Source: a virus. Taken from it: 54,360 nt of DNA. Location of the stretch: UHGV virus genome UHGV-1841366; one strand, 5' to 3'. Below the pieces are notes generated by a model. The model was given only the letters and a program-made list of their open reading frames with translations, ran no database searches and was not told where the DNA came from. Shown here piece after piece: positions 4,222-54,360 of this stretch (within the stretch, counting starts at the first letter, position 1; every line of letters begins with the position of its first letter). The position numbers were made by a program, and so were the translations under genes.

Positions 4222-4278
4222 GCCTGCTTCCGTATATATAAATAATAAGTAACTTAATAAATATATACGGAAGCAGGC
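4222..4278. repeat. long AT-rich-loop hairpin, copy A of three
   Basis: GCCTGCTTCCGTATATAT ... ATATATACGGAAGCAGGC; near-identical copies at 19067-19122 and 47623-47669. Confidence 0.7.
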
Positions 4279-4530: not shown

Positions 4531-4782
4531 ATGAGCTATCAAATTCTGACGACGACAGCAGCCAGCATTACTGAGCTGAAAAGAAACCCTATGGGCACTG
4601 TAGCTGAAGGTGAGGGGGAGGCCGTCGCAATCCTGAACCGGAATGAACCCGCGTTTTACTGTGTCCCACCAGAACTTTATGCCTACTATCGGGAACTCGC
4701 CGAGGACGCTGAACTTAACGCGATTGCAGATGAAAGAATGAAAGAACCGGACATTGTGAAGGTTAACCTGAATGACCTATGA
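4531..4782 (+). CDS. type II antitoxin, RelB/StbD-like
   Basis: 83 aa; overlaps the downstream RelE-like gene by 11 nt; C-terminus (DAEL...VKVNLNDL) resembles the RelB C-terminus as I remember it; GAGGAGG ribosome-binding site. Confidence 0.6.
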   Translation: MSYQILTTTAASITELKRNPMGTVAEGEGEAVAILNRNEPAFYCVPPELYAYYRELAEDAELNAIADERMKEPDIVKVNLNDL

Positions 4783-5053
4783 GCTGGCATTTGAACGCAG
4801 GGCACTGAAAGAATGGCAGAAGCTCGGCCACACTGTTCGTGAACAATTCAAAAAGAAGCTGTCAGAGCGCCTGAAAAATCCACATGTCCCCGCAGCCAGG
4901 CTATATGGTCATACTGACCGTTACAAAATTAAGCTTCGCGCATCCGGTTACAGGCTCGTTTATCAGGTAATTGATGAGAAGGTTGTTTTGCTTGTCATTG
5001 CTGTAGGAAAAAGGGAAAGCAGCGAAGTCTATCACACGGCTGATACTCGTTAG
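4772..5053 (+). CDS. relE: type II toxin, RelE/ParE superfamily
   Basis: 93 aa; the stretch YKIKLRASGYRLVYQVIDEKVVLLVIAVGKRESSEVY closely matches the E. coli RelE sequence as I recall it (not database-checked). Confidence 0.7.
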   Translation: MTYELAFERRALKEWQKLGHTVREQFKKKLSERLKNPHVPAARLYGHTDRYKIKLRASGYRLVYQVIDEKVVLLVIAVGKRESSEVYHTADTR

Positions 5054-5100
5054 CAAAGTGCGCCTTATATCCTCGCCTGTTGACTAAATCTCATAATAAC

Positions 5101-5314
5101 CTGAGGTCAATTTCTTCTGTTTGTGACCTCAGGTTAATTTCCTTTATTTATAACCTTAACTTATTAGGCTGCATTTTATTCCGCGTCATCGCTTCATTAT
5201 TTATGTATATGGCGACCTTATTTAATTACGCCCACCTGAACTTACTTCTTTTCCGCCTGTTTCATTCAGCGATAATTAACGCATCGAAACGAAACTAAAC
5301 GAAAGGAGTTAAAA
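5101..5314 (+). promoter_or_regulatory. leader region duplicated upstream of 6217 (copy 1)
   Basis: Perfect inverted repeat CCTGAGGTCA/TGACCTCAGG at 5101-5134, then a block about 85 percent identical to 6143-6216 ending in the ribosome-binding site and ATG. Confidence 0.55.
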
Positions 5315-6034
5315 ATGAGTGCGCGTCTTAAGAAGCTTATCAAAAAGCGTAAATCTCTTAAAGAACATGCAGAATTGATAAATTTAATTGAAAAACGTTT
5401 TCCAGTCATTTCGGATATTGAGGACTTCTATTGGGTGGAGAAATGTAAAGTTTGGGATGGCATTGATGATGTAAAAGATGTGGATGATTTTGTCAGCAAG
5501 TACAACCCAGACATTAACTACAAACTAGCTGATGATTTTGCTGGCTCGTCTAAAGATGATCCGCTTCCTGATTGGTTTAACATTGATGATTATCCTAGTT
5601 GCATGTGTACCACCTACACCAACAAAGATTTTAGTAAAGCGTGGTTTGCTATTGCTTATGGCTGTTATTTCAATAAGTCCGACGGAAGCAAAAGACCATA
5701 TTTTCTCGCTGAAATAGACTTAACCAGCGGAGAGATTACAGTACACGAAAACCACAGGAATCTAATGAAGCTTGTTGATAGCGTTCGCGTACTGGATACA
5801 GACGCCCAGCAATTAACGAACAATGCATGGTTCGGACTTGATGGAGTAAAAGGGGGTATCGAACTGATAATGGGTCATCTTTTAAATGAATACTCGGACT
5901 GGTATCATCCGCCACACAATCCGCTTGAGTCATTTGACGATCCGCTTGAGCCATTTGACGATCCGCTGAAGGACTACATCGATGAACCAATATATATGAT
6001 GGAATCTTTTCAATTAGATATGATTCCAGCATGA
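5315..6034 (+). CDS. hypothetical acidic protein, paralog of 8730..9377
   Basis: 239 aa, very D/E-rich; shares the block AWF..(16-18 aa)..LAEIDL(T/L)SG(E/K)ITV and a C-terminal LEPLESF/PLESFDD motif with the minus-strand protein at 8730..9377. Confidence 0.55.
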   Translation: MSARLKKLIKKRKSLKEHAELINLIEKRFPVISDIEDFYWVEKCKVWDGIDDVKDVDDFVSKYNPDINYKLADDFAGSSKDDPLPDWFNIDDYPSCMCTTYTNKDFSKAWFAIAYGCYFNKSDGSKRPYFLAEIDLTSGEITVHENHRNLMKLVDSVRVLDTDAQQLTNNAWFGLDGVKGGIELIMGHLLNEYSDWYHPPHNPLESFDDPLEPFDDPLKDYIDEPIYMMESFQLDMIPA

Positions 6035-6077: not shown

Positions 6078-6216
6078 ATCACCTCAGGTCAAATTTCCTC
6101 GTTTGCAACCTCAGGTCAATTTAAGAATGATATCACCTGTATCCCTGAACTTACTTCTTTTCTGCCTGTTTCATTCAGCGATGATTATTACATCGAAAAC
6201 AAACGAGGAATTAAAA
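6078..6216 (+). promoter_or_regulatory. leader region duplicated upstream of 5315 (copy 2)
   Basis: Direct repeats ACCTCAGGTCAA at 6081-6092 and 6107-6118; block homologous to 5236-5314. Confidence 0.55.
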
Positions 6217-7143: not shown

Positions 7144-7346
7144 AAACAAGGCCACCACTGCTGGTGGCCTTAAATGACCATCCTGTCTCCCGCAGGCTAA
7201 AAACACCAACCTCTTACCTCCAGGCAACCGACAAACCCACCTGTTCCCGTCCGGCTACCGCAACTTTCCACTTTGACGCCTTATTCGTACAACCATAATT
7301 AACACCAACAAGAGAACAATTTGTTATTTAGAATAAGGAATCAATC

Positions 7347-10423: not shown

Positions 10424-10987
10424 TTAAAATGGAAGGATTCGGTCAACCCAATCGAAGAGAACAATCATTCTTGCATGTTCCCTGATTTTCATCGTCACCT
10501 GACAAGCATCAACGCCTAACGACACTCCCTCTATTTCACGGCCATCCGCCATGTAGACCCTTATAGATCTGCCGTTTTGATGAGCTTTGCGACATATCTT
10601 AAAAAAGTCACGACGTGATGGCTGGTTGTTCACGTAGTCAGGATGTACGGTAAGCCTGTCCGCAAAGTCCCCATCTACTTCTGGAGGTATAATCGTTTCT
10701 ATAGAGCTAACTTTCCCAAGAGGAAGACGAACTCGACGCTCTTTGCTTCTTGGAACGGGTGATAGATCAAGTTTGTTGCGTGATGGTAGTGTTCCCTGTA
10801 CATACATGTTGAATACCTGTCCATCTTCCATCGTGACTTTTACAGGAACAGAGTGTGCCCTCCAGAACATCAAGGTATGTTCCACATTAGAATAGTCTCG
10901 CGGCCATACTTCAGCCGGTATGCCGTATGTAATATCTTTCGTCGTCATATCATTATAAAGTGGTTGGCAATATGTCCATTGTACCAT
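10424..10987 (-). CDS. hypothetical protein
   Basis: ORF track, 187 aa; overlaps the upstream lipoprotein gene by 35 nt, so the true start may be the internal ATG at 10948; no clear ribosome-binding site for either. Confidence 0.4.
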   Translation of the reverse strand: MVQWTYCQPLYNDMTTKDITYGIPAEVWPRDYSNVEHTLMFWRAHSVPVKVTMEDGQVFNMYVQGTLPSRNKLDLSPVPRSKERRVRLPLGKVSSIETIIPPEVDGDFADRLTVHPDYVNNQPSRRDFFKICRKAHQNGRSIRVYMADGREIEGVSLGVDACQVTMKIREHARMIVLFDWVDRILPF

Positions 10988-15786: not shown

Positions 15787-15868
15787 AAACCTCTTTCCTT
15801 AGTGCCTTTTGTATGTTATTTGGCTATTATAATAAGTAAGCAATTACTTAGTGGATTGTAGCAATAAA

Positions 15869-16549
15869 ATGGATGTAAAAATTACGATTTTGCAGGTTGA
15901 TGTTGCCAACCTTCGCCCGAATACCTGGAACACCAATTCGGTTGGTGCGCAGAATTTTGAAAAACTGAAAGGTTCTATCGAAAAATTAGGCTTTTTTAAA
16001 CCAATTTTGGCTCGTGAAATTGAAGATGGATTTTTTGAAATCCTCGGTGGCGAACATCGCTGGCGTGCCGCTATTGAGCAAGGAATTTCAACGGTTCCAG
16101 TGCTTTCTGTGGGCAAAATTAGCGATGTCGTAGCTAAACAGATGTCACTGGTGGACAACGAGCGATATGGTGAAGACGACCAAATCGCATTGCAACGCTT
16201 CATTGAAGAAATTCAGTCAGAACTTGACTATCAACTGTCTGAAATCGCCCCGTATGACGACGAAATCTCGATGGTTTTAGCAAAAGAGGCGGCAATCGAC
16301 CTTGAAGCACTGGAGGCGTTGTCTCGTGGTAGTGATGAGCCTGTCGATACCGACAAACGAGAGAAAACCGAACGTGTGGGGGCGGAACATCAGACCATGC
16401 GCTTCAAAGTAACTTTCGATGCGTCAGATCGTGTTGCAGAAACCATAAAAAACATCATCAAAGAGCAGGCTATTAACACCGGTAATGAAATGGAGAACGC
16501 TGGTGAGGCTCTGGTGTGGCTGGTCGACTACTACAAGGAGCGTATGTAA
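15869..16549 (+). CDS. ParB/Srx-like nuclease-domain protein 1
   Basis: GGEHRWRAA resembles the ParB GxxRxxA box; start taken at the first in-frame ATG (15851 is GTG); neither start has a strong ribosome-binding site. Confidence 0.55.
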   Translation: MDVKITILQVDVANLRPNTWNTNSVGAQNFEKLKGSIEKLGFFKPILAREIEDGFFEILGGEHRWRAAIEQGISTVPVLSVGKISDVVAKQMSLVDNERYGEDDQIALQRFIEEIQSELDYQLSEIAPYDDEISMVLAKEAAIDLEALEALSRGSDEPVDTDKREKTERVGAEHQTMRFKVTFDASDRVAETIKNIIKEQAINTGNEMENAGEALVWLVDYYKERM

Positions 16550-17217
16550 TGACCAAAAAGTTTGAAATCGTATATCGCGACCCGGCAGATCTTATTCCCT
16601 ATGAGATGAATGCCAAAAAGCATGATGAACAGCAGATCCGAGATCTGGCCGCAGCCATTAAAAAGCGCGGATTTGACCAGCCAATTACGGTCGATAAGAA
16701 CGACGTAATTATTACTGGCCACGGCCGCCGTGAGGCTGCAATTTTTGCTGGACTTGAGCGCGTACCGGTTATTGTTCGCGATGATCTCAGTGATGACGAG
16801 GTTCGTGCGAAGCGCCTTGAAGATAACCGACTTGCCAGCATTGATTACGATGCAATTAAGCTACAGAAAGAGCTTGAGTCGCTTGTTCTGGACGATATCG
16901 AGGTTTTCGGCTTTGAAGAGCGTGAGTTGAATGTTCTCGTTGGCAGCATGACAGAAGAAATGGACACCGACTCGCTAGTTATCGATCTGGGCGAAGAAAC
17001 TAAACGACAGAAGGATGAACACACCGAGATCAGTCGTGAAGTTGCAGCGGAAGAAGTACGTGTTGTCGACGTATTGGGCTTTAAAACGCTCCCTGCTGGC
17101 TCTGCCATTGTTGTTGGTGATTTGCTTGCCCACATGGAAGAAATGACGAGAGAAAGCGGGGTAGACGCATTTGTGGCATATGCGGAGAAGATCTCTTCCG
17201 GGGAGATGGCTGCATGA
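16550..17217 (+). CDS. ParB/Srx-like nuclease-domain protein 2
   Basis: ITGHGRREAA motif; ATG directly after the upstream TAA, with AGGAGCG ribosome-binding site. Confidence 0.55.
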
Positions 17218-17879
17218 GCAAATACATCATCAACGTATCGTTTCAGACACGCGTAAATAAAACCACGCGCACGTTGGAAATCGCTGAGTCGTTCGGGCTT
17301 GGCCTGGACGAAAAAGAGTGGACGCTTTACGACAATCTGGAGCTGGAAGTGAAGCAGGGCGATGTGGTGTACATCACCGGCCAATCCGGTTCAGGTAAAT
17401 CCGTTGTGTTGCGCGAGCTGCAACGCCAGATGAAGGATGAAGGGCTTTCTGTAGCTTCTATTGATGACTTTACCTTCGATAATGAGGTTAACGTCATTGA
17501 CCAACTGGGCAAAACTACCAGTGATGCGCTTGGGTTGTTATCTATGGCAGGTCTGAACGATGCATATCTGTTTGTTCGCAAGCCTTCTGAAATGTCAGAC
17601 GGTCAGAAATATCGTCTCAAGATTGCCAAACTGATTGAGTCAGGCGCTAAAGTGTGGGCTGCTGACGAGTTCGGTGCTGTTCTCGATCGTGTAACCGCTC
17701 AGGTTGTGGCATCTAACCTCCAGCGTGCCGCTCGAAAGGTTGGTGCGACGGTAATGGTGGCGACGACTCACGAAGACTTGAAGAACGCGCTGCGCCCGGA
17801 TATGCAGATCACCAAGCACTACAAAGAACGCGTGAAGGTGGAGTATCACAATGGTAGTCATGATGAGGCTCATTCATGA
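17214..17879 (+). CDS. small soluble ABC-type ATPase
   Basis: Walker A GQSGSGKS, signature-like SDGQKY, Walker B VWAADE, H-loop TTHED; ATGA overlap with the upstream gene. Confidence 0.55.
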   Translation: MSKYIINVSFQTRVNKTTRTLEIAESFGLGLDEKEWTLYDNLELEVKQGDVVYITGQSGSGKSVVLRELQRQMKDEGLSVASIDDFTFDNEVNVIDQLGKTTSDALGLLSMAGLNDAYLFVRKPSEMSDGQKYRLKIAKLIESGAKVWAADEFGAVLDRVTAQVVASNLQRAARKVGATVMVATTHEDLKNALRPDMQITKHYKERVKVEYHNGSHDEAHS

Positions 17880-19066: not shown

Positions 19067-19122
19067 CCTGCTTCTGTATATATAAATAATAAGTAACTTA
19101 ATAAATATATACGGAAGCAGGC
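19067..19122. repeat. long AT-rich-loop hairpin, copy B
   Basis: CCTGCTTCTGTATATATAAATAATAAGTAACTTAATAAATATATACGGAAGCAGG; one stem mismatch relative to copy A. Confidence 0.7.
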
Positions 19123-19185
19123 TTAATAAGACATGCCCAGATTCAATTAAACACACCAGTAAACAAGTTGGTTAATAGATGCAGT

Positions 19186-19198
19186 AAACAAGTTGTTT
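19186..19198. promoter_or_regulatory. palindromic motif AAACAA-N-TTGTTT (copy upstream of terS)
   Basis: Perfect copy; variant copy at 19161-19173; followed by palindrome GAGCGC-ATGGAC-GCGCTC and the ATG at 19239. Confidence 0.5.
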
Positions 19199-45447: not shown

Positions 45448-45969
45448 TTATTCTTCGAACAATTTTTCGATAGATTTTGTTGGATAGAACAAAGATCGCT
45501 CGTTGTTTCCAATCAACTGGATAAAGCCCAGGCTTTTATAAAACGCCTTAGCCTTATCATTCAACGCCTCAACGAAGAGTCCATGAATACCAACAGCAAG
45601 AGAGGCGTTATACACAACACGCATAGCGTGTGTTACAAGCATTGAGCCAAACCCTTGACTTTGAAGAGGTTTGTCCAAAGCCAGTCTGCCCAAAGTAACA
45701 CTTGGCACATTCCGATAAGGCACCTTCTTTTGCTGGCTTCTTGAAGGTAAGGACTCCTTTTCAAAGCAGCTGCCTGACAAAGTGTAATACCCTAACACTT
45801 TGGGTCTGTCTTCTTTAGTGCAAAGCACATAAGCGCGAAGAATTTTTCCCTCATGCTGTCTTTTTAAGTGGTTGATTAAAAAGGAGTTTAGAGATTCTTC
45901 ACCGCAATCAAAGCCATTCAAATCATAATCTTTCTCTCCAGAGAAAATTTCTATCTTTATATTATCCAC
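45448..45969 (-). CDS. ataT: GNAT-family toxin of a type II toxin-antitoxin pair (AtaT/TacT/KacT-like)
   Basis: 173 aa; near-collinear match to the AtaT sequence as I recall it (DYDL..FDCGEE, VLGYYTL.GSCFE, IPSVTLGRLA, GIHGLFVEALN, FYKSLGF); 7-nt gap to the upstream antitoxin. Confidence 0.7.
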   Translation of the reverse strand: MDNIKIEIFSGEKDYDLNGFDCGEESLNSFLINHLKRQHEGKILRAYVLCTKEDRPKVLGYYTLSGSCFEKESLPSRSQQKKVPYRNVPSVTLGRLALDKPLQSQGFGSMLVTHAMRVVYNASLAVGIHGLFVEALNDKAKAFYKSLGFIQLIGNNERSLFYPTKSIEKLFEE

Positions 45970-45976
45970 GAGTAAA

Positions 45977-46246
45977 CTATTCCATGCTTTTCAGACGATC
46001 AGCAGCTCGTTTCAGCTTGTCGTTCGGTGCCGGAGGATTGCTTATAGCGTCCATAACCAGATTCCAGGATTCCTCATTCAGAACCAGTCTACGGTGTTGC
46101 TCTATAACTTTCACGGCACGTTCAGATGCACTGCTAACCATAAACTGAGTAATGCTCTGGTTAGACATTGCGGCAGCTTCCTCGATGATGCTTTTATCGT
46201 CATCGGTTAATCTCAAATCGATGCGCTGCTTTTTTAGTGCTGACAT
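45977..46246 (-). CDS. ataR: DUF1778-type antitoxin (AtaR/TacA-like)
   Basis: ATG at 46246 preceded by AGGAGG (ORF track begins upstream at 46285); MSALKKQRIDLRLTDDDKS...NEESW closely resembles AtaR as recalled. Confidence 0.7.
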   Translation of the reverse strand: MSALKKQRIDLRLTDDDKSIIEEAAAMSNQSITQFMVSSASERAVKVIEQHRRLVLNEESWNLVMDAISNPPAPNDKLKRAADRLKSME

Positions 46247-46434
46247 GTATTCCTCCTGATGGCCGTGATGTAGGAAGGCCATCAATCTCCTCTGTTCAAA
46301 CTGAGGTTTCGACTCAAAAATTACTTTAAAAGGCTATAGCCCATTACGTGTGCATTATCAAATTGTGTACGGCATATCACCGTACTTGTAATATAGAGGT
46401 CATTGTTACTTTTTTCAACAGACAAATACAAGCT

Positions 46435-46456
46435 GTGATTGCCAATTGTTAATCAC
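46435..46456. promoter_or_regulatory. operator-like inverted repeat GTGATT-N10-AATCAC
   Basis: In the 318-bp divergent region between ataR and parA; a second inverted repeat GTACGG-N8-CCGTAC lies at 46369-46390. Confidence 0.35.
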
Positions 46457-46516
46457 AACCTACCATTTAACCTTTACACCGCAGCCGTAGGCATTTAGGC
46501 TATATCACATATAAGA

Positions 46517-46529
46517 AAACAAGTTGTTT
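46517..46529. promoter_or_regulatory. palindromic motif AAACAA-N-TTGTTT (copy upstream of parA)
   Basis: Perfect copy 36 nt upstream of the parA start. Confidence 0.5.
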
Positions 46530-46564
46530 CAGACGATAATTATATACGCAAAGGGAACTCTCCA

Positions 46565-47233
46565 ATGACCAAGATCTTTGTGGTTGGCGGCACAAAGGGC
46601 GGGCCTGGCAAATCCACCGTTGCCCAGCAAATTGCCGTTTGCCTGAAAGTCAAAAAGAAGAAGAAGGTTTATATCACTGATATAGATATTCAGCGCACGA
46701 CAACAAGCTGGTGTGAAGACCGTCGACAGAACGAAGACCTTGAGCTGATTCCTTTTGCATACGTTCAGGATGACATCATTAAGCACCTAAAATCACTTCA
46801 GGGTAGAGCTGAGTTTGTAGTGGTAGATGCTGGTGGCTTTGACTCCGAAATTCAGCGACAAGCGATGCTGATGGCTGACGTTATCATTATCCCGCTTCGT
46901 CCTAAGCGTCGTGATTTGAAATCTCTGCGTGACATCGATCCTATTATCGACAATGTTCGTAATGTAAACGATAAAGTGAAGGTCCGCGCGGTCATGAACC
47001 AGTGCCCGGCTTTGCCATCACAAGTGTCTCGCATTCTGGCGGCTAAAGAGATTGTCGAGACGTTTGGCATCGAGTCTGCGCCTGTCAATCTATATAACCG
47101 CAACGTCTACGATGATGCGGAAGAGTCTGGTCGTTCTATCTTTGAAATGACCGGTAGCGAGCGCGACAAAAAGGCGGAAGCCGAGTTTGAAGAATTTGTA
47201 GATTATCTGTTGAGTCTGGAGGAAGAAGAATAA
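46565..47233 (+). CDS. parA: ParA-family partition ATPase (small, type Ib-like)
   Basis: 222 aa; deviant Walker A GGTKGGPGKST; no N-terminal DNA-binding extension. Confidence 0.75.
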   Translation: MTKIFVVGGTKGGPGKSTVAQQIAVCLKVKKKKKVYITDIDIQRTTTSWCEDRRQNEDLELIPFAYVQDDIIKHLKSLQGRAEFVVVDAGGFDSEIQRQAMLMADVIIIPLRPKRRDLKSLRDIDPIIDNVRNVNDKVKVRAVMNQCPALPSQVSRILAAKEIVETFGIESAPVNLYNRNVYDDAEESGRSIFEMTGSERDKKAEAEFEEFVDYLLSLEEEE

Positions 47234-47592
47234 TGTCCATGAAAATGGGTGACCTAGCAAAGCGCAAAGAGCCTGATGCACCGGCTAAGAACACAACTCC
47301 TTTGCGCCAACCAGTCAGACCACAGGGACGCCCGACTCGTGGCAAAGAGAAAATTAAAAGCCGCACAATGTCACTGGAAGACGAATACTTCGAACTGCTG
47401 GAGATGATGAAGTTCATCCCTCGTTTCGAGAAGTTCACCCGTTCTGACGTGATTCGAGCAGCTATTTTCCATCTGGCAGAGAAGTCACCGCAGGAAATCG
47501 AGGACATCGTGAAACTTAACGAGGCGATCACAGCTGCCGACGTTACTATGCGTACCGATGAAATCAAGCGAGAACTCATGAAAAAAGGCTGA
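47233..47592 (+). CDS. ParG-like small centromere-binding protein (putative)
   Basis: 119 aa translationally coupled to parA (TAATG); basic disordered N-terminus and short C-terminal helical region. Confidence 0.5.
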   Translation: MSMKMGDLAKRKEPDAPAKNTTPLRQPVRPQGRPTRGKEKIKSRTMSLEDEYFELLEMMKFIPRFEKFTRSDVIRAAIFHLAEKSPQEIEDIVKLNEAITAADVTMRTDEIKRELMKKG

Positions 47593-47622
47593 CAACTTCC
47601 GGTCTGGCAGCTTCAATCAGAA

Positions 47623-47669
47623 CCTGTTTCTGTATATAAATAATAAGTAACTTATTAAATATATATATA
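47623..47669. repeat. long AT-rich-loop hairpin, copy C
   Basis: CCTGTTTCTGTATATAAATAATAAGTAACTTATTAAATATATATATACGGAAGCAGG; shorter and more diverged than A and B. Confidence 0.65.
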
Positions 47670-47763
47670 CGGAAGCAGGTCTTTTAAAAGACACCCACCA
47701 GAACAACTCCCTTCCGTTTTCACTTCCAAAAACTGACACCAGTCGCTATCATCTGCTCATTGT

Positions 47764-47785
47764 GATAAGTAAGTAACTACCTACC
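47764..47785. promoter_or_regulatory. GATAAGTAAGTAACTACCTACC motif
   Basis: Member of the TAAGTAA/TACCTA motif family; 12 nt upstream of the ATG at 47797. Confidence 0.45.
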
Positions 47786-47796
47786 AGGTGAGCCAC

Positions 47797-48548: not shown

Positions 48549-48561
48549 AAACAATTTGTTT
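48549..48561. promoter_or_regulatory. palindromic motif AAACAA-N-TTGTTT (copy upstream of helicase)
   Basis: Perfect copy 20 nt upstream of the ATG at 48581. Confidence 0.5.
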
Positions 48562-52100: not shown

Positions 52101-52583
52101 ATGGCGATAGTTGTGAAAGCTGATTTGTCAAAAATCCCCTCTATTTCAGGAAATAATGGTTATTCACTTCGTTGTGAGGAAGTAAAGATAAACGGTGAGT
52201 CGGCATATTGCAGTTACTCCGTTTGCCAGCATACCATTCTTGCCTTCAAAGAAAACCGTCTTCCTCGAACTTCATTCCAGTCGTGCGCAACCGCTATCAA
52301 AGCAGGCAAATGCAAGGCGTTAAAAATGATGGTTGGAGAGATTCGTAAAGGAGAATCTCTGTATTTCGAAGATATGACCGCGCTCATTAAGGAGGTTGAA
52401 GAACGGAATAAACAAGCCAGAACTATAAAACGAAAACGTGACAGTGTAACGATTAATAGCATGGTTAAGAAGAGCACCACATCACAAACAGCGATCACTG
52501 ACGTGTATGCGGCGTTGCTTGAAGAAACAACAAAAGAAACACATGAGCAAATCGATCAACATATGGAGGCAAAACAACAATGA
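52101..52583 (+). CDS. hypothetical protein
   Basis: ORF track, 160 aa; four cysteines (C25, C37, C42, C62) could form a metal site. Confidence 0.45.
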   Translation: MAIVVKADLSKIPSISGNNGYSLRCEEVKINGESAYCSYSVCQHTILAFKENRLPRTSFQSCATAIKAGKCKALKMMVGEIRKGESLYFEDMTALIKEVEERNKQARTIKRKRDSVTINSMVKKSTTSQTAITDVYAALLEETTKETHEQIDQHMEAKQQ

Positions 52584-52756
52584 AAAAGTTGATCGCACTT
52601 AAGCATAAGCTGGACGAAATGAAAGCTATGGGAACCAATGCAAAAAAAGAGGCATTGGCCAACATGGATGACTTCGAGCAAAGCATGGTTTCATTGATGC
52701 TCAACCCTTTCATTCGTTTTGGGGTAAAGAAATACAAAGTGACCGGAGTTCCCTGA
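52580..52756 (+). CDS. hypothetical small protein (58 aa)
   Basis: Not in the ORF track; ATGA overlap with the upstream stop; hand-translated to TGA at 52754-52756. Confidence 0.35.
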   Translation: MKKLIALKHKLDEMKAMGTNAKKEALANMDDFEQSMVSLMLNPFIRFGVKKYKVTGVP

Positions 52757-54284: not shown

Positions 54285-54360
54285 GCCGGTTTAGCTCAGT
54301 TGGTAGAGCAGTCGCTTTGTAAGCGAATGGCCAGCGGTTCAAGTCCGTTAACCGGCACCA
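54285..54360 (+). tRNA. tRNA-Thr (anticodon TGT)
   Basis: Acceptor GCCGGTT/AACCGGC, D-arm TAGCTCAGTTGGTAGAGC, anticodon loop TTTGTAA, T-loop TTCAAGT, encoded CCA; 76 nt fits standard numbering; ends exactly at the window edge. Confidence 0.7.

Follow-up and report, generated by a model that had tools for sequence, protein, structure and literature searches.

The stretch of DNA analysed here (54,360 nucleotides of virus genome UHGV-1841366, hereafter the window) carries at positions 46565 to 47592 a gene for a small ParA-type ATPase, directly followed by a gene for a protein of 119 amino acids (aa). The locus raises the question whether the two proteins form a plasmid partition system, and how the element that encodes them is maintained. 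An earlier sequence-only reading had seen a type Ib partition pair with a ParG-like partner and had proposed extrachromosomal maintenance from the lack of an integrase, two toxin-antitoxin modules and iteron-like repeats. From the analysis described below, the locus is quite probably an active-partition cassette of type Ib (ParF/ParG-type) design that belongs to an SSU5/pHCM2-type phage-plasmid. The plasmid lifestyle of this element type is already known, and this headline conclusion adds nothing new; the new content is modest and consists of the assignment of an adaptor family and a delimited candidate promoter/centromere block. The locus comprises the following features:

46458–46534, plus strand: conserved non-coding block, par promoter region and best candidate operator/centromere (conservation, hexamers)
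46517–46529, no strand assigned: 13-bp palindrome AAACAAGTTGTTT, copy of a dispersed operator-like motif; it ends the conserved block, 36 nt upstream of parA
46565–47233, plus strand: parA, 222-aa ParF-like (type Ib-size) Walker-type partition ATPase
47233–47592, plus strand: gene of the 119-aa protein, putative centromere-binding protein/ParA adaptor (TAATG overlap with parA, co-occurrence, conservation)
47622–47680, no strand assigned: ~57-bp AT-rich hairpin with GC-rich base directly 3' of the 119-aa gene, putative bidirectional intrinsic terminator

The ParA protein and its probable partner

ParA, which is already annotated in SSU5-type records, carries a deviant Walker A motif (KGGPGKS) from residue 11 and a Walker B-like FVVVD at residue 84, and has no N-terminal DNA-binding extension (the helix-turn-helix (HTH) domain of type Ia). 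As in type Ib systems, it is thus a small Walker-type ParA without N-terminal HTH. Matches were obtained to Pfam MipZ, AAA_31 and CbiA and to PHROG 164 ('ParA-like partition protein'); the match to NCBIfam ParA_partition (203-position profile) had an E-value of 1.9e-33, which is below the cutoff of the model. ParF of TP228 (4dzz, 5u1g) was the best solved relative, with E 1.2e-10 over nearly the full length. The small ParA with deviant Walker A that had been noticed before was thereby confirmed.

The 119-aa gene starts within the parA stop codon (one-base overlap, TAATG), and by gene arrangement the small partner gene lies directly downstream in the same operon, as in type Ib. It follows parA in all SSU5-type loci with enough flanking sequence; only two loci, both ending at a contig end, are without it. 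The three most divergent homologs (26–40% identity; loci L126–L128) likewise lie directly 3' of a 222–229-aa ParA, past tail-fibre and lysis-type genes. The family is small, with 25 clusters in a set of 5.8 billion proteins and 18 representatives found by exhaustive profile search among 1.84 billion proteins.

A basic tail and a helical C-terminus had been attributed to the 119-aa protein, and both were found. Residues 1–47 have an isoelectric point (pI) of 11.4. AlphaFold predicted a disordered N-terminus (predicted local distance difference test score, pLDDT, <50 for residues 1–26), helices at residues 48–61, 70–84, 86–98 and 101–118, and no strand was called. In the family alignment, an invariant N-terminal MGDLAKR-type peptide is followed by a variable linker, an invariant basic stretch and the core SRTMSLEDEY...FTRSDVIRAAI. 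By sequence, the C-terminal half fits the register of a ribbon-helix-helix (RHH) protein, with a putative core at about residues 41–85 and two further helices after it.

No named family was significant for the protein in Pfam, PDB, NCBIfam or PHROGs, with single sequences or with profiles. Thirteen family members gave no Pfam ParG or other RHH match at E-values up to 10, no PDB sequence match to ParG was obtained, and the profile search of 1.84 billion representatives provided no bridge to known RHH families. The databases label it hypothetical, or of 'unknown function' in the case of PHROG 5111. The sole NCBIfam match was to aCcr1, an archaeal RHH regulator, at E 2.3e-4 (below threshold, residues 54–79). 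Of the ParG-like, type Ib layout proposed earlier, the ParF-like ParA and the coupled small gene therefore stood, and ParG at the sequence level did not: judged by sequence comparison, the 119-aa protein is not a member of the ParG family, although a ParG-like nature is still plausible.

A similar arrangement was found in Colwelliaceae and Alteromonadaceae (31 species), where a ParA ~40% identical to that of the window is followed by an overlapping gene of 124–166 aa on chromosomal contigs. The small partner there has an N-terminal S-L-[ST]-D-L-K-K peptide (S/G-DL-KK layout), and its C-terminal domain matches RHH_1 in 7 of 12 members (best E 1.5e-4) and CopG in the PDB (E 0.002). Alignment of the two families with hhalign gave the same strand-helix-helix register at weak scores (P 0.0065–0.0076, probability 5–6%). 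The Colwelliaceae pair is a chromosomal relative of the phage-plasmid par pair. These loci (L011–L041) lie in many cases on large chromosomal contigs; on the Thalassotalea piscium chromosome (L028, 3956–5003), a 222-aa ParA and an RHH-type partner are located between radC and rpmB, with a small open reading frame (ORF) adjoining.

Type Ib centromere-binding proteins are described as too divergent for recognition by sequence and as having flexible N-terminal tails (PMC3074162). Because of its co-occurrence with the small ParA, the conserved N-terminal peptide and the Colwelliaceae counterparts, the 119-aa protein is very probably the partition adaptor of ParA, and an RHH fold is plausible, though not proven. 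This corrects the public annotation: what follows parA is very likely the missing partition adaptor and not a toxin or a gene of unknown function.

Candidate cis elements of the par operon

Homology to relatives starts abruptly at ~46458 and breaks again at the stop codon of the 119-aa gene. The first 77 bp of this homology, the non-coding block, have a mean pairwise identity of 0.96–0.97 (72 distinct sequences) versus ~0.88 for parA coding DNA, a conservation equal to that of the best coding segments. Promoter-like hexamers are present as TTTACA (46473–46478), a 17-nt spacer and TAGGCT (46496–46501), followed by TATAAG (46510–46515). A sigma-70 scan did not report TTTACA-N17-TAGGCT, whose second hexamer matches the consensus at 3/6 positions. 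The block further holds two TAGGC copies 8 bp apart (46488 and 46496) and small inverted repeats, and the part 5' of the palindrome is single copy on the plasmid. Upstream of parA in L126, where the small protein is 40% identical, the hexamers and TATAAGAA are kept. A search for centromere repeats had been suggested; no repeat or iteron array was found around par, where the single-copy conserved block stands instead. This block is our candidate for a centromere/operator bound by the 119-aa protein, and as a short conserved DNA segment it is a concrete target for centromere and incompatibility work or for curing strategies.

The palindrome that ends the block is one of several related sites. 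A motif scan with AAACAAnTTGTTT placed these as follows:

85–97, 136–148, 814–826, 2010–2022, 2561–2573, 19161–19173, 19186–19198, 46517–46529 and 48549–48561, no strand assigned: palindrome AAACAAnTTGTTT sites

With up to two mismatches, the window gave 20 strand matches where 3.4 were expected, and the count of 20 was not attained in any of 100 shuffles. With up to one mismatch there were 9 sites in the window, 15 in plasmid pYLMB53a and 6 in pMT1, versus 0.15–0.35 in shuffles. The sites are usually preceded by '...AAGA' and lie 10–40 nt upstream of start codons, among them those of par, the DnaB-like helicase, the terminase operon and genes at the left end. The motif has the look of an operator serving an element-wide regulon. 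pMT1 has it and is without the par pair, and L126–L128 have the pair and not the motif; since sites and pair are thus found without each other, the palindrome is not the specific site of the adaptor. A candidate for the protein that binds it is encoded elsewhere in the window:

10424–10987, minus strand: 187-aa FljA-like repressor (Pfam Flag1_repress, i.e. FljA, repressor of phase-1 flagellin, E 1.3e-70; PHROG 1444 'transcriptional repressor')

This protein may bind the palindromes, or possibly modulate the flagellin of the host. Its 801-bp region had matches in 520 plasmid records across the SSU5 supergroup, including Yersinia; the best match had 79% coverage at 84% identity, and none reached 80%.

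The hairpin behind the 119-aa gene has 29-nt arms, T-rich flanks and a folding energy of -25 to -39 kcal/mol on both strands. Copies in the window are located at ~4223–4277, 19067–19121 and 47623–47679, versus 0.29 arm matches expected. The near-perfect hairpin (CCTGCTTCCGTATATA...) sits at operon boundaries and is also found in pYLMB53a and pMT1. The hairpins are probable bidirectional terminators, and the copy at 47622–47680 probably closes the par operon.

Identity and lifestyle of the element

The window represents about half of an SSU5/pHCM2-type phage-plasmid of Escherichia. It is 93–97% identical at the DNA level to SSU5/pHCM2-type plasmid prophages, which include circular Escherichia plasmids of 105–116 kb and the phages SSU5 and Cyrano, and the gene order of terminase, head and tail genes, lysis, par, DnaB-like helicase, primase and tRNAs is common to the window and its relatives. 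Persistent phage genes, synteny and, in the relatives, a circular plasmid of ~100–115 kb place it in the SSU5 supergroup, with about half of the element covered by the window. This supergroup is an established phage-plasmid family with extrachromosomal prophages (PMC7969092). Across this region the window is ~96.5% identical to Cyrano/pLF82, for which ~5.5 copies per cell were measured and which makes virions (PMC9928086). The IncFIB-type RepA of the relatives sits outside the region equivalent to the window (record of a relative; PMC7969092).

A survey of 5,426 complete E. coli genomes located the par locus in 264 of them, at 304 places in total, every one of which is plasmid-borne. It was present on 693 plasmids of PLSDB, and in scans of GTDB and IMG/VR all enterobacterial contigs with the locus were ≤146 kb. 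Because of these counts extrachromosomal maintenance is well supported, and the conclusion that the element is kept as a phage-plasmid outside the chromosome has strong support. The earlier proposal is upheld in this respect, also by the identity to plasmid prophages and the copy number of Cyrano. It had suggested looking for a separate circular replicon, and such replicons of 105–116 kb are what the relatives are. Constant chromosomal integration of related elements, which it had named as speaking against it, was not what was found. A chromosomally integrated plasmid remnant with SSU5 repB/parA and without phage structural genes has been described in S. Agona (preprint 10.1101/2025.09.12.675607). 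A literature search on chromosomal integration of pMT1/pFra gave nothing usable.

Several smaller plasmids carry a par region ~97% identical to that of the window, namely Escherichia albertii plasmids of 62–64 kb (hits H12–H18) and a Shigella sonnei plasmid of 66.5 kb (H20). These 62–66-kb plasmids may be deletion derivatives of the ~110-kb phage-plasmid. A 10-kb contig of a 'Bacillota bacterium' metagenome-assembled genome (L007, JAEWTL010000041.1) encodes a ParA 93% identical to that of the window together with the small gene; it probably comes from an enterobacterial phage-plasmid and was mis-binned. Clinical E. coli, Salmonella, Shigella and Klebsiella commonly harbour SSU5-type phage-plasmids, some of them with resistance genes.

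A probable recombinase past the window edge

The lifestyle had been argued in part from the absence of an integrase. A Pfam search of the 74 ORFs of the window, the check that had been suggested for this claim, gave no tyrosine or serine recombinase, integrase, resolvase or transposase domain, and the recombinase of the relatives had no match in the window when used as tblastn query. The 3' end of the window falls exactly at a tRNA-Thr gene (54285–54360); an Rfam scan of the window found three tRNAs and nothing else. In pMRY16-002_2, the closest relative for the 3' end, a cluster of Asn, Tyr and Thr tRNA genes is followed ~2 kb on by a tyrosine recombinase, and in pYLMB53a a tyrosine recombinase likewise lies ~2 kb past the tRNA cluster. 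The protein has 367 aa and a Pfam Phage_integrase domain, and pMT1 holds an 86%-identical copy. The persistent genes listed for the SSU5 supergroup include tyrosine recombinases (PMC7969092).

Because the window stops at the tRNA-Thr and the recombinase of the relatives follows ~2 kb beyond, the absence of an integrase is, by this comparison, an edge effect. Judged from the relatives, the element itself very probably carries a tyrosine recombinase just past the 3' edge. The claim thus holds for the ORFs of the window and fails as an argument on lifestyle. An integrase just outside the window had been named as a finding that would speak against a plasmid, and it very probably exists; the lifestyle call still stands. 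The recombinase region was plasmid-borne at 847 of 856 places in the complete E. coli genomes, and the weakest listed matches span the tRNA genes alone. By analogy to Cre in P1, the most likely task of the enzyme is the resolution of plasmid multimers and not phage integration. For the SSU5 family, 'no integrase' is an unsafe criterion: the tyrosine recombinase is conserved, yet the par locus is never integrated in complete E. coli genomes.

Proposed partition mechanism and alternative explanations

In the favoured explanation, a promoter in the 46458–46534 block would drive a two-gene operon of parA and the translationally coupled 119-aa gene, which would be closed by the hairpin terminator. 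ParA, as a small Walker ATPase, would bind the nucleoid as an ATP dimer. For the 119-aa protein we infer dimerisation via the C-terminal half, probably an RHH fold with two extra helices, and binding to the conserved block upstream of parA, which would be both centromere and operator; the disordered basic tail and the invariant MGDLAKR peptide would stimulate the ParA ATPase. Low-copy prophage plasmids (~5 per cell in Cyrano) could thereby be spaced along the nucleoid and inherited by both daughters, while the two toxin-antitoxin modules would add post-segregational killing and the tyrosine recombinase past the window edge would resolve plasmid multimers.

Several points weigh against this explanation. 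A repeat array as is typical of type Ib centromeres is missing near par, and the palindrome, the one clear symmetric site of the block, belongs to a family-wide motif that is independent of the 119-aa protein. In a limited reading of the literature, no stability phenotype for the par cassette, published or tested, turned up. The element also encodes two ParB_N-domain proteins at 15851–17217:

15851–17879, plus strand: two consecutive ParB_N-domain proteins (15851–17217) and an ABC-type ATPase, a few genes upstream of the terminase large subunit; kept in pMT1

One of these is named 'ParB/RepB/Spo0J family partition protein' by RefSeq, and a ParB_N-domain protein might be the centromere-binding partner of ParA, with the 119-aa protein merely acting as transcriptional regulator of the operon. 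The ParB_N pair is, however, ~30 kb away from parA, beside the ABC-type ATPase and the terminase operon, and it is kept in pMT1, which is without the small ParA and has a P1-type ParA/ParB of its own. In L126–L128 the divergent ParA and small-protein pairs stay together, and small ParF-like ATPases are known to pair with small RHH proteins, HTH-type ParB belonging to type Ia (PMC3074162). The ParB_N proteins are probably not partition proteins; their role as ParA partner was rejected on the grounds of location and retention in pMT1, and we regard it as unlikely. Even less credence is given to a third role of the small gene, that of a moron encoding a RelE/ParE-type toxin, with ParA using another partner. 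The Cyrano homolog CYRAN_29 is annotated as RelE/ParE putative toxin (OV696614) and is listed with the toxins expressed during lysogeny (PMC9928086). The 119-aa protein itself does not match the RelE/ParE models of Pfam, NCBIfam and PHROGs at E-values up to 10, compared with 8.6e-13 for the true ParE of the window. No antitoxin adjoins the gene, whose translation is coupled to that of parA and which is strictly inherited together with parA. RelE/ParE folds contain beta-sheet, whereas a disordered tail and helices with no strand called were predicted here. The toxin label was rejected.

The palindromes bear on a further explanation. Omega of pSM19035 is a centromere-binding protein and a global repressor, and the 119-aa protein might similarly be a global regulator on the dispersed AAACAAnTTGTTT palindromes, with sites doubling as dispersed centromeres. 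The conserved block contains one such site, 36 nt upstream of parA, and further copies are found in front of the helicase, terminase and other operons. Such a role appears improbable, as pMT1 is without a 119-aa homolog or small ParA and yet has 6 palindromes (0.15 expected) at homologous promoters, and the diverged loci L126–L128 have the pair without the palindrome; on these two observations the palindrome was rejected as an omega-like binding site. A supergroup-wide regulator, e.g. the FljA-like repressor, fits the palindromes better. The element as a whole could also be an integrative prophage that uses the tyrosine recombinase beside its tRNA genes, the ParA pair having some other role. 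This would agree with the Phage_integrase-family recombinase that relatives carry ~2 kb past the tRNA cluster and with the integrated SSU5 repB/parA remnant in S. Agona (preprint 10.1101/2025.09.12.675607). It is very hard to reconcile with the complete E. coli genomes, where chromosomal copies make up 0 of 304 places of the par locus and 9 of 856 places of the recombinase region (the weakest listed matches covering tRNA genes alone), with enterobacterial contigs of ≤146 kb, with the IncFIB-type RepA of relatives (PMC7969092) and with the Cyrano copy number of 5.5, and is considered highly improbable. Partition by the ParA/119-aa pair remains the favoured explanation. A more far-reaching version of it is put forward as a tentative and rather doubtful proposal: the 119-aa protein may found an unrecognised ParA-adaptor family with a [G/S][D/G]L-x-K[KR] peptide, a cryptic RHH core and two extra helices, a design common to the Colwelliaceae chromosomal partner, and the par operon may belong to the palindrome regulon together with the replication and packaging operons, a single regulator (possibly the FljA-like repressor) then coordinating partition and the lytic-lysogenic programme.

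Comparison with known systems

The par cassette shares with ParF-ParG-parH of TP228 a small Walker ATPase without N-terminal DNA-binding domain (ParF being the best solved match), a small downstream partner with a basic N-terminal tail (here predicted to be flexible), and a candidate cis site upstream of the operon. It differs in the partner, which has no detectable sequence similarity to ParG, is longer (119 aa versus 76 aa) and has two extra C-terminal helices, and in the lack of a short-repeat array corresponding to parH. ParA-ParB of pCXC100, delta-omega of pSM19035 and SegA-SegB of Sulfolobus also combine a Walker ATPase with a small RHH partner. None of these shows sequence homology, and their centromeres consist of repeat arrays, in contrast to the single-copy conserved block of the window.

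P1 (ParA-ParB-parS and Cre/lox) and N15 (SopAB) follow the same logic of a low-copy plasmid prophage with active partition and addiction modules, but use a large type Ia ParA with an HTH ParB or SopB. In P1, a tyrosine recombinase resolves multimers (PMC7969092). Within the SSU5 supergroup (SSU5, pHCM2, Cyrano/pLF82, pKpn, pSLy3) the window differs in nothing essential; it is without the cargo between the small gene and the following 249-aa gene, and apparently without the DNA ligase of the relatives. pMT1, a member of the supergroup, has a P1-type ParA/ParB in place of the small-ParA pair.

Toxin-antitoxin modules, cargo slots and repeats

Both toxin-antitoxin modules that had been claimed were recovered:

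45448–46285, minus strand: tacA-tacT addiction module (DUF1778 antitoxin and GNAT toxin; Pfam TacA1 8.6e-26, GNAT families)
4531–5053, plus strand: Phd/YefM-like antitoxin (4531–4782) and ParE toxin (4772–5053; Pfam ParE_toxin 8.6e-13)

The PhdYeFM_antitox match of the second antitoxin (0.0017) is below the family threshold. The tacAT module is variable cargo upstream of par with a breakpoint at ~46458 and is present in some relatives. Between tacA and the conserved par block, a palindrome (TGTGATTgcCAATTGttAATCACA, 46434–46457) was found; its conservation does not extend to SSU5 or the Klebsiella relative, and it could be the tacAT operator. Both flanks of par are cargo slots (46286–46457 and 47593–47787). 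The second one separates the small gene from the 249-aa gene; in relatives it holds GIY-YIG (LEM-3-like), DUF2971, P-loop NTPase or hypothetical genes, and in the window none.

At ~52580, between homologs of ORFs 52101–52583 and 52580–52756, the window appears to be without a ~1.3-kb ATP-dependent DNA ligase gene of the relatives, since the two-piece match spans ~1.4 kb more in their records.

The iteron-like repeats of the sequence-only reading were not confirmed: only short direct repeats of two to four copies were found, far from par and none adjoining a Rep gene, and these may be what had been called iteron-like.

871–932, 5099–5140, 5916–5957, 6081–6122 and 7200–7260, no strand assigned: short direct repeats, two to four copies

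They consist of 31-mers in two tandem pairs 6.3 kb apart (871–932, 7200–7260), a 21-bp tandem repeat (5916–5957), and two pairs of the 15-mer ACCTCAGGTCAATTT with 27-bp spacing (5099–5140, 6081–6122), located before or at the start of two ORFs without Pfam match.

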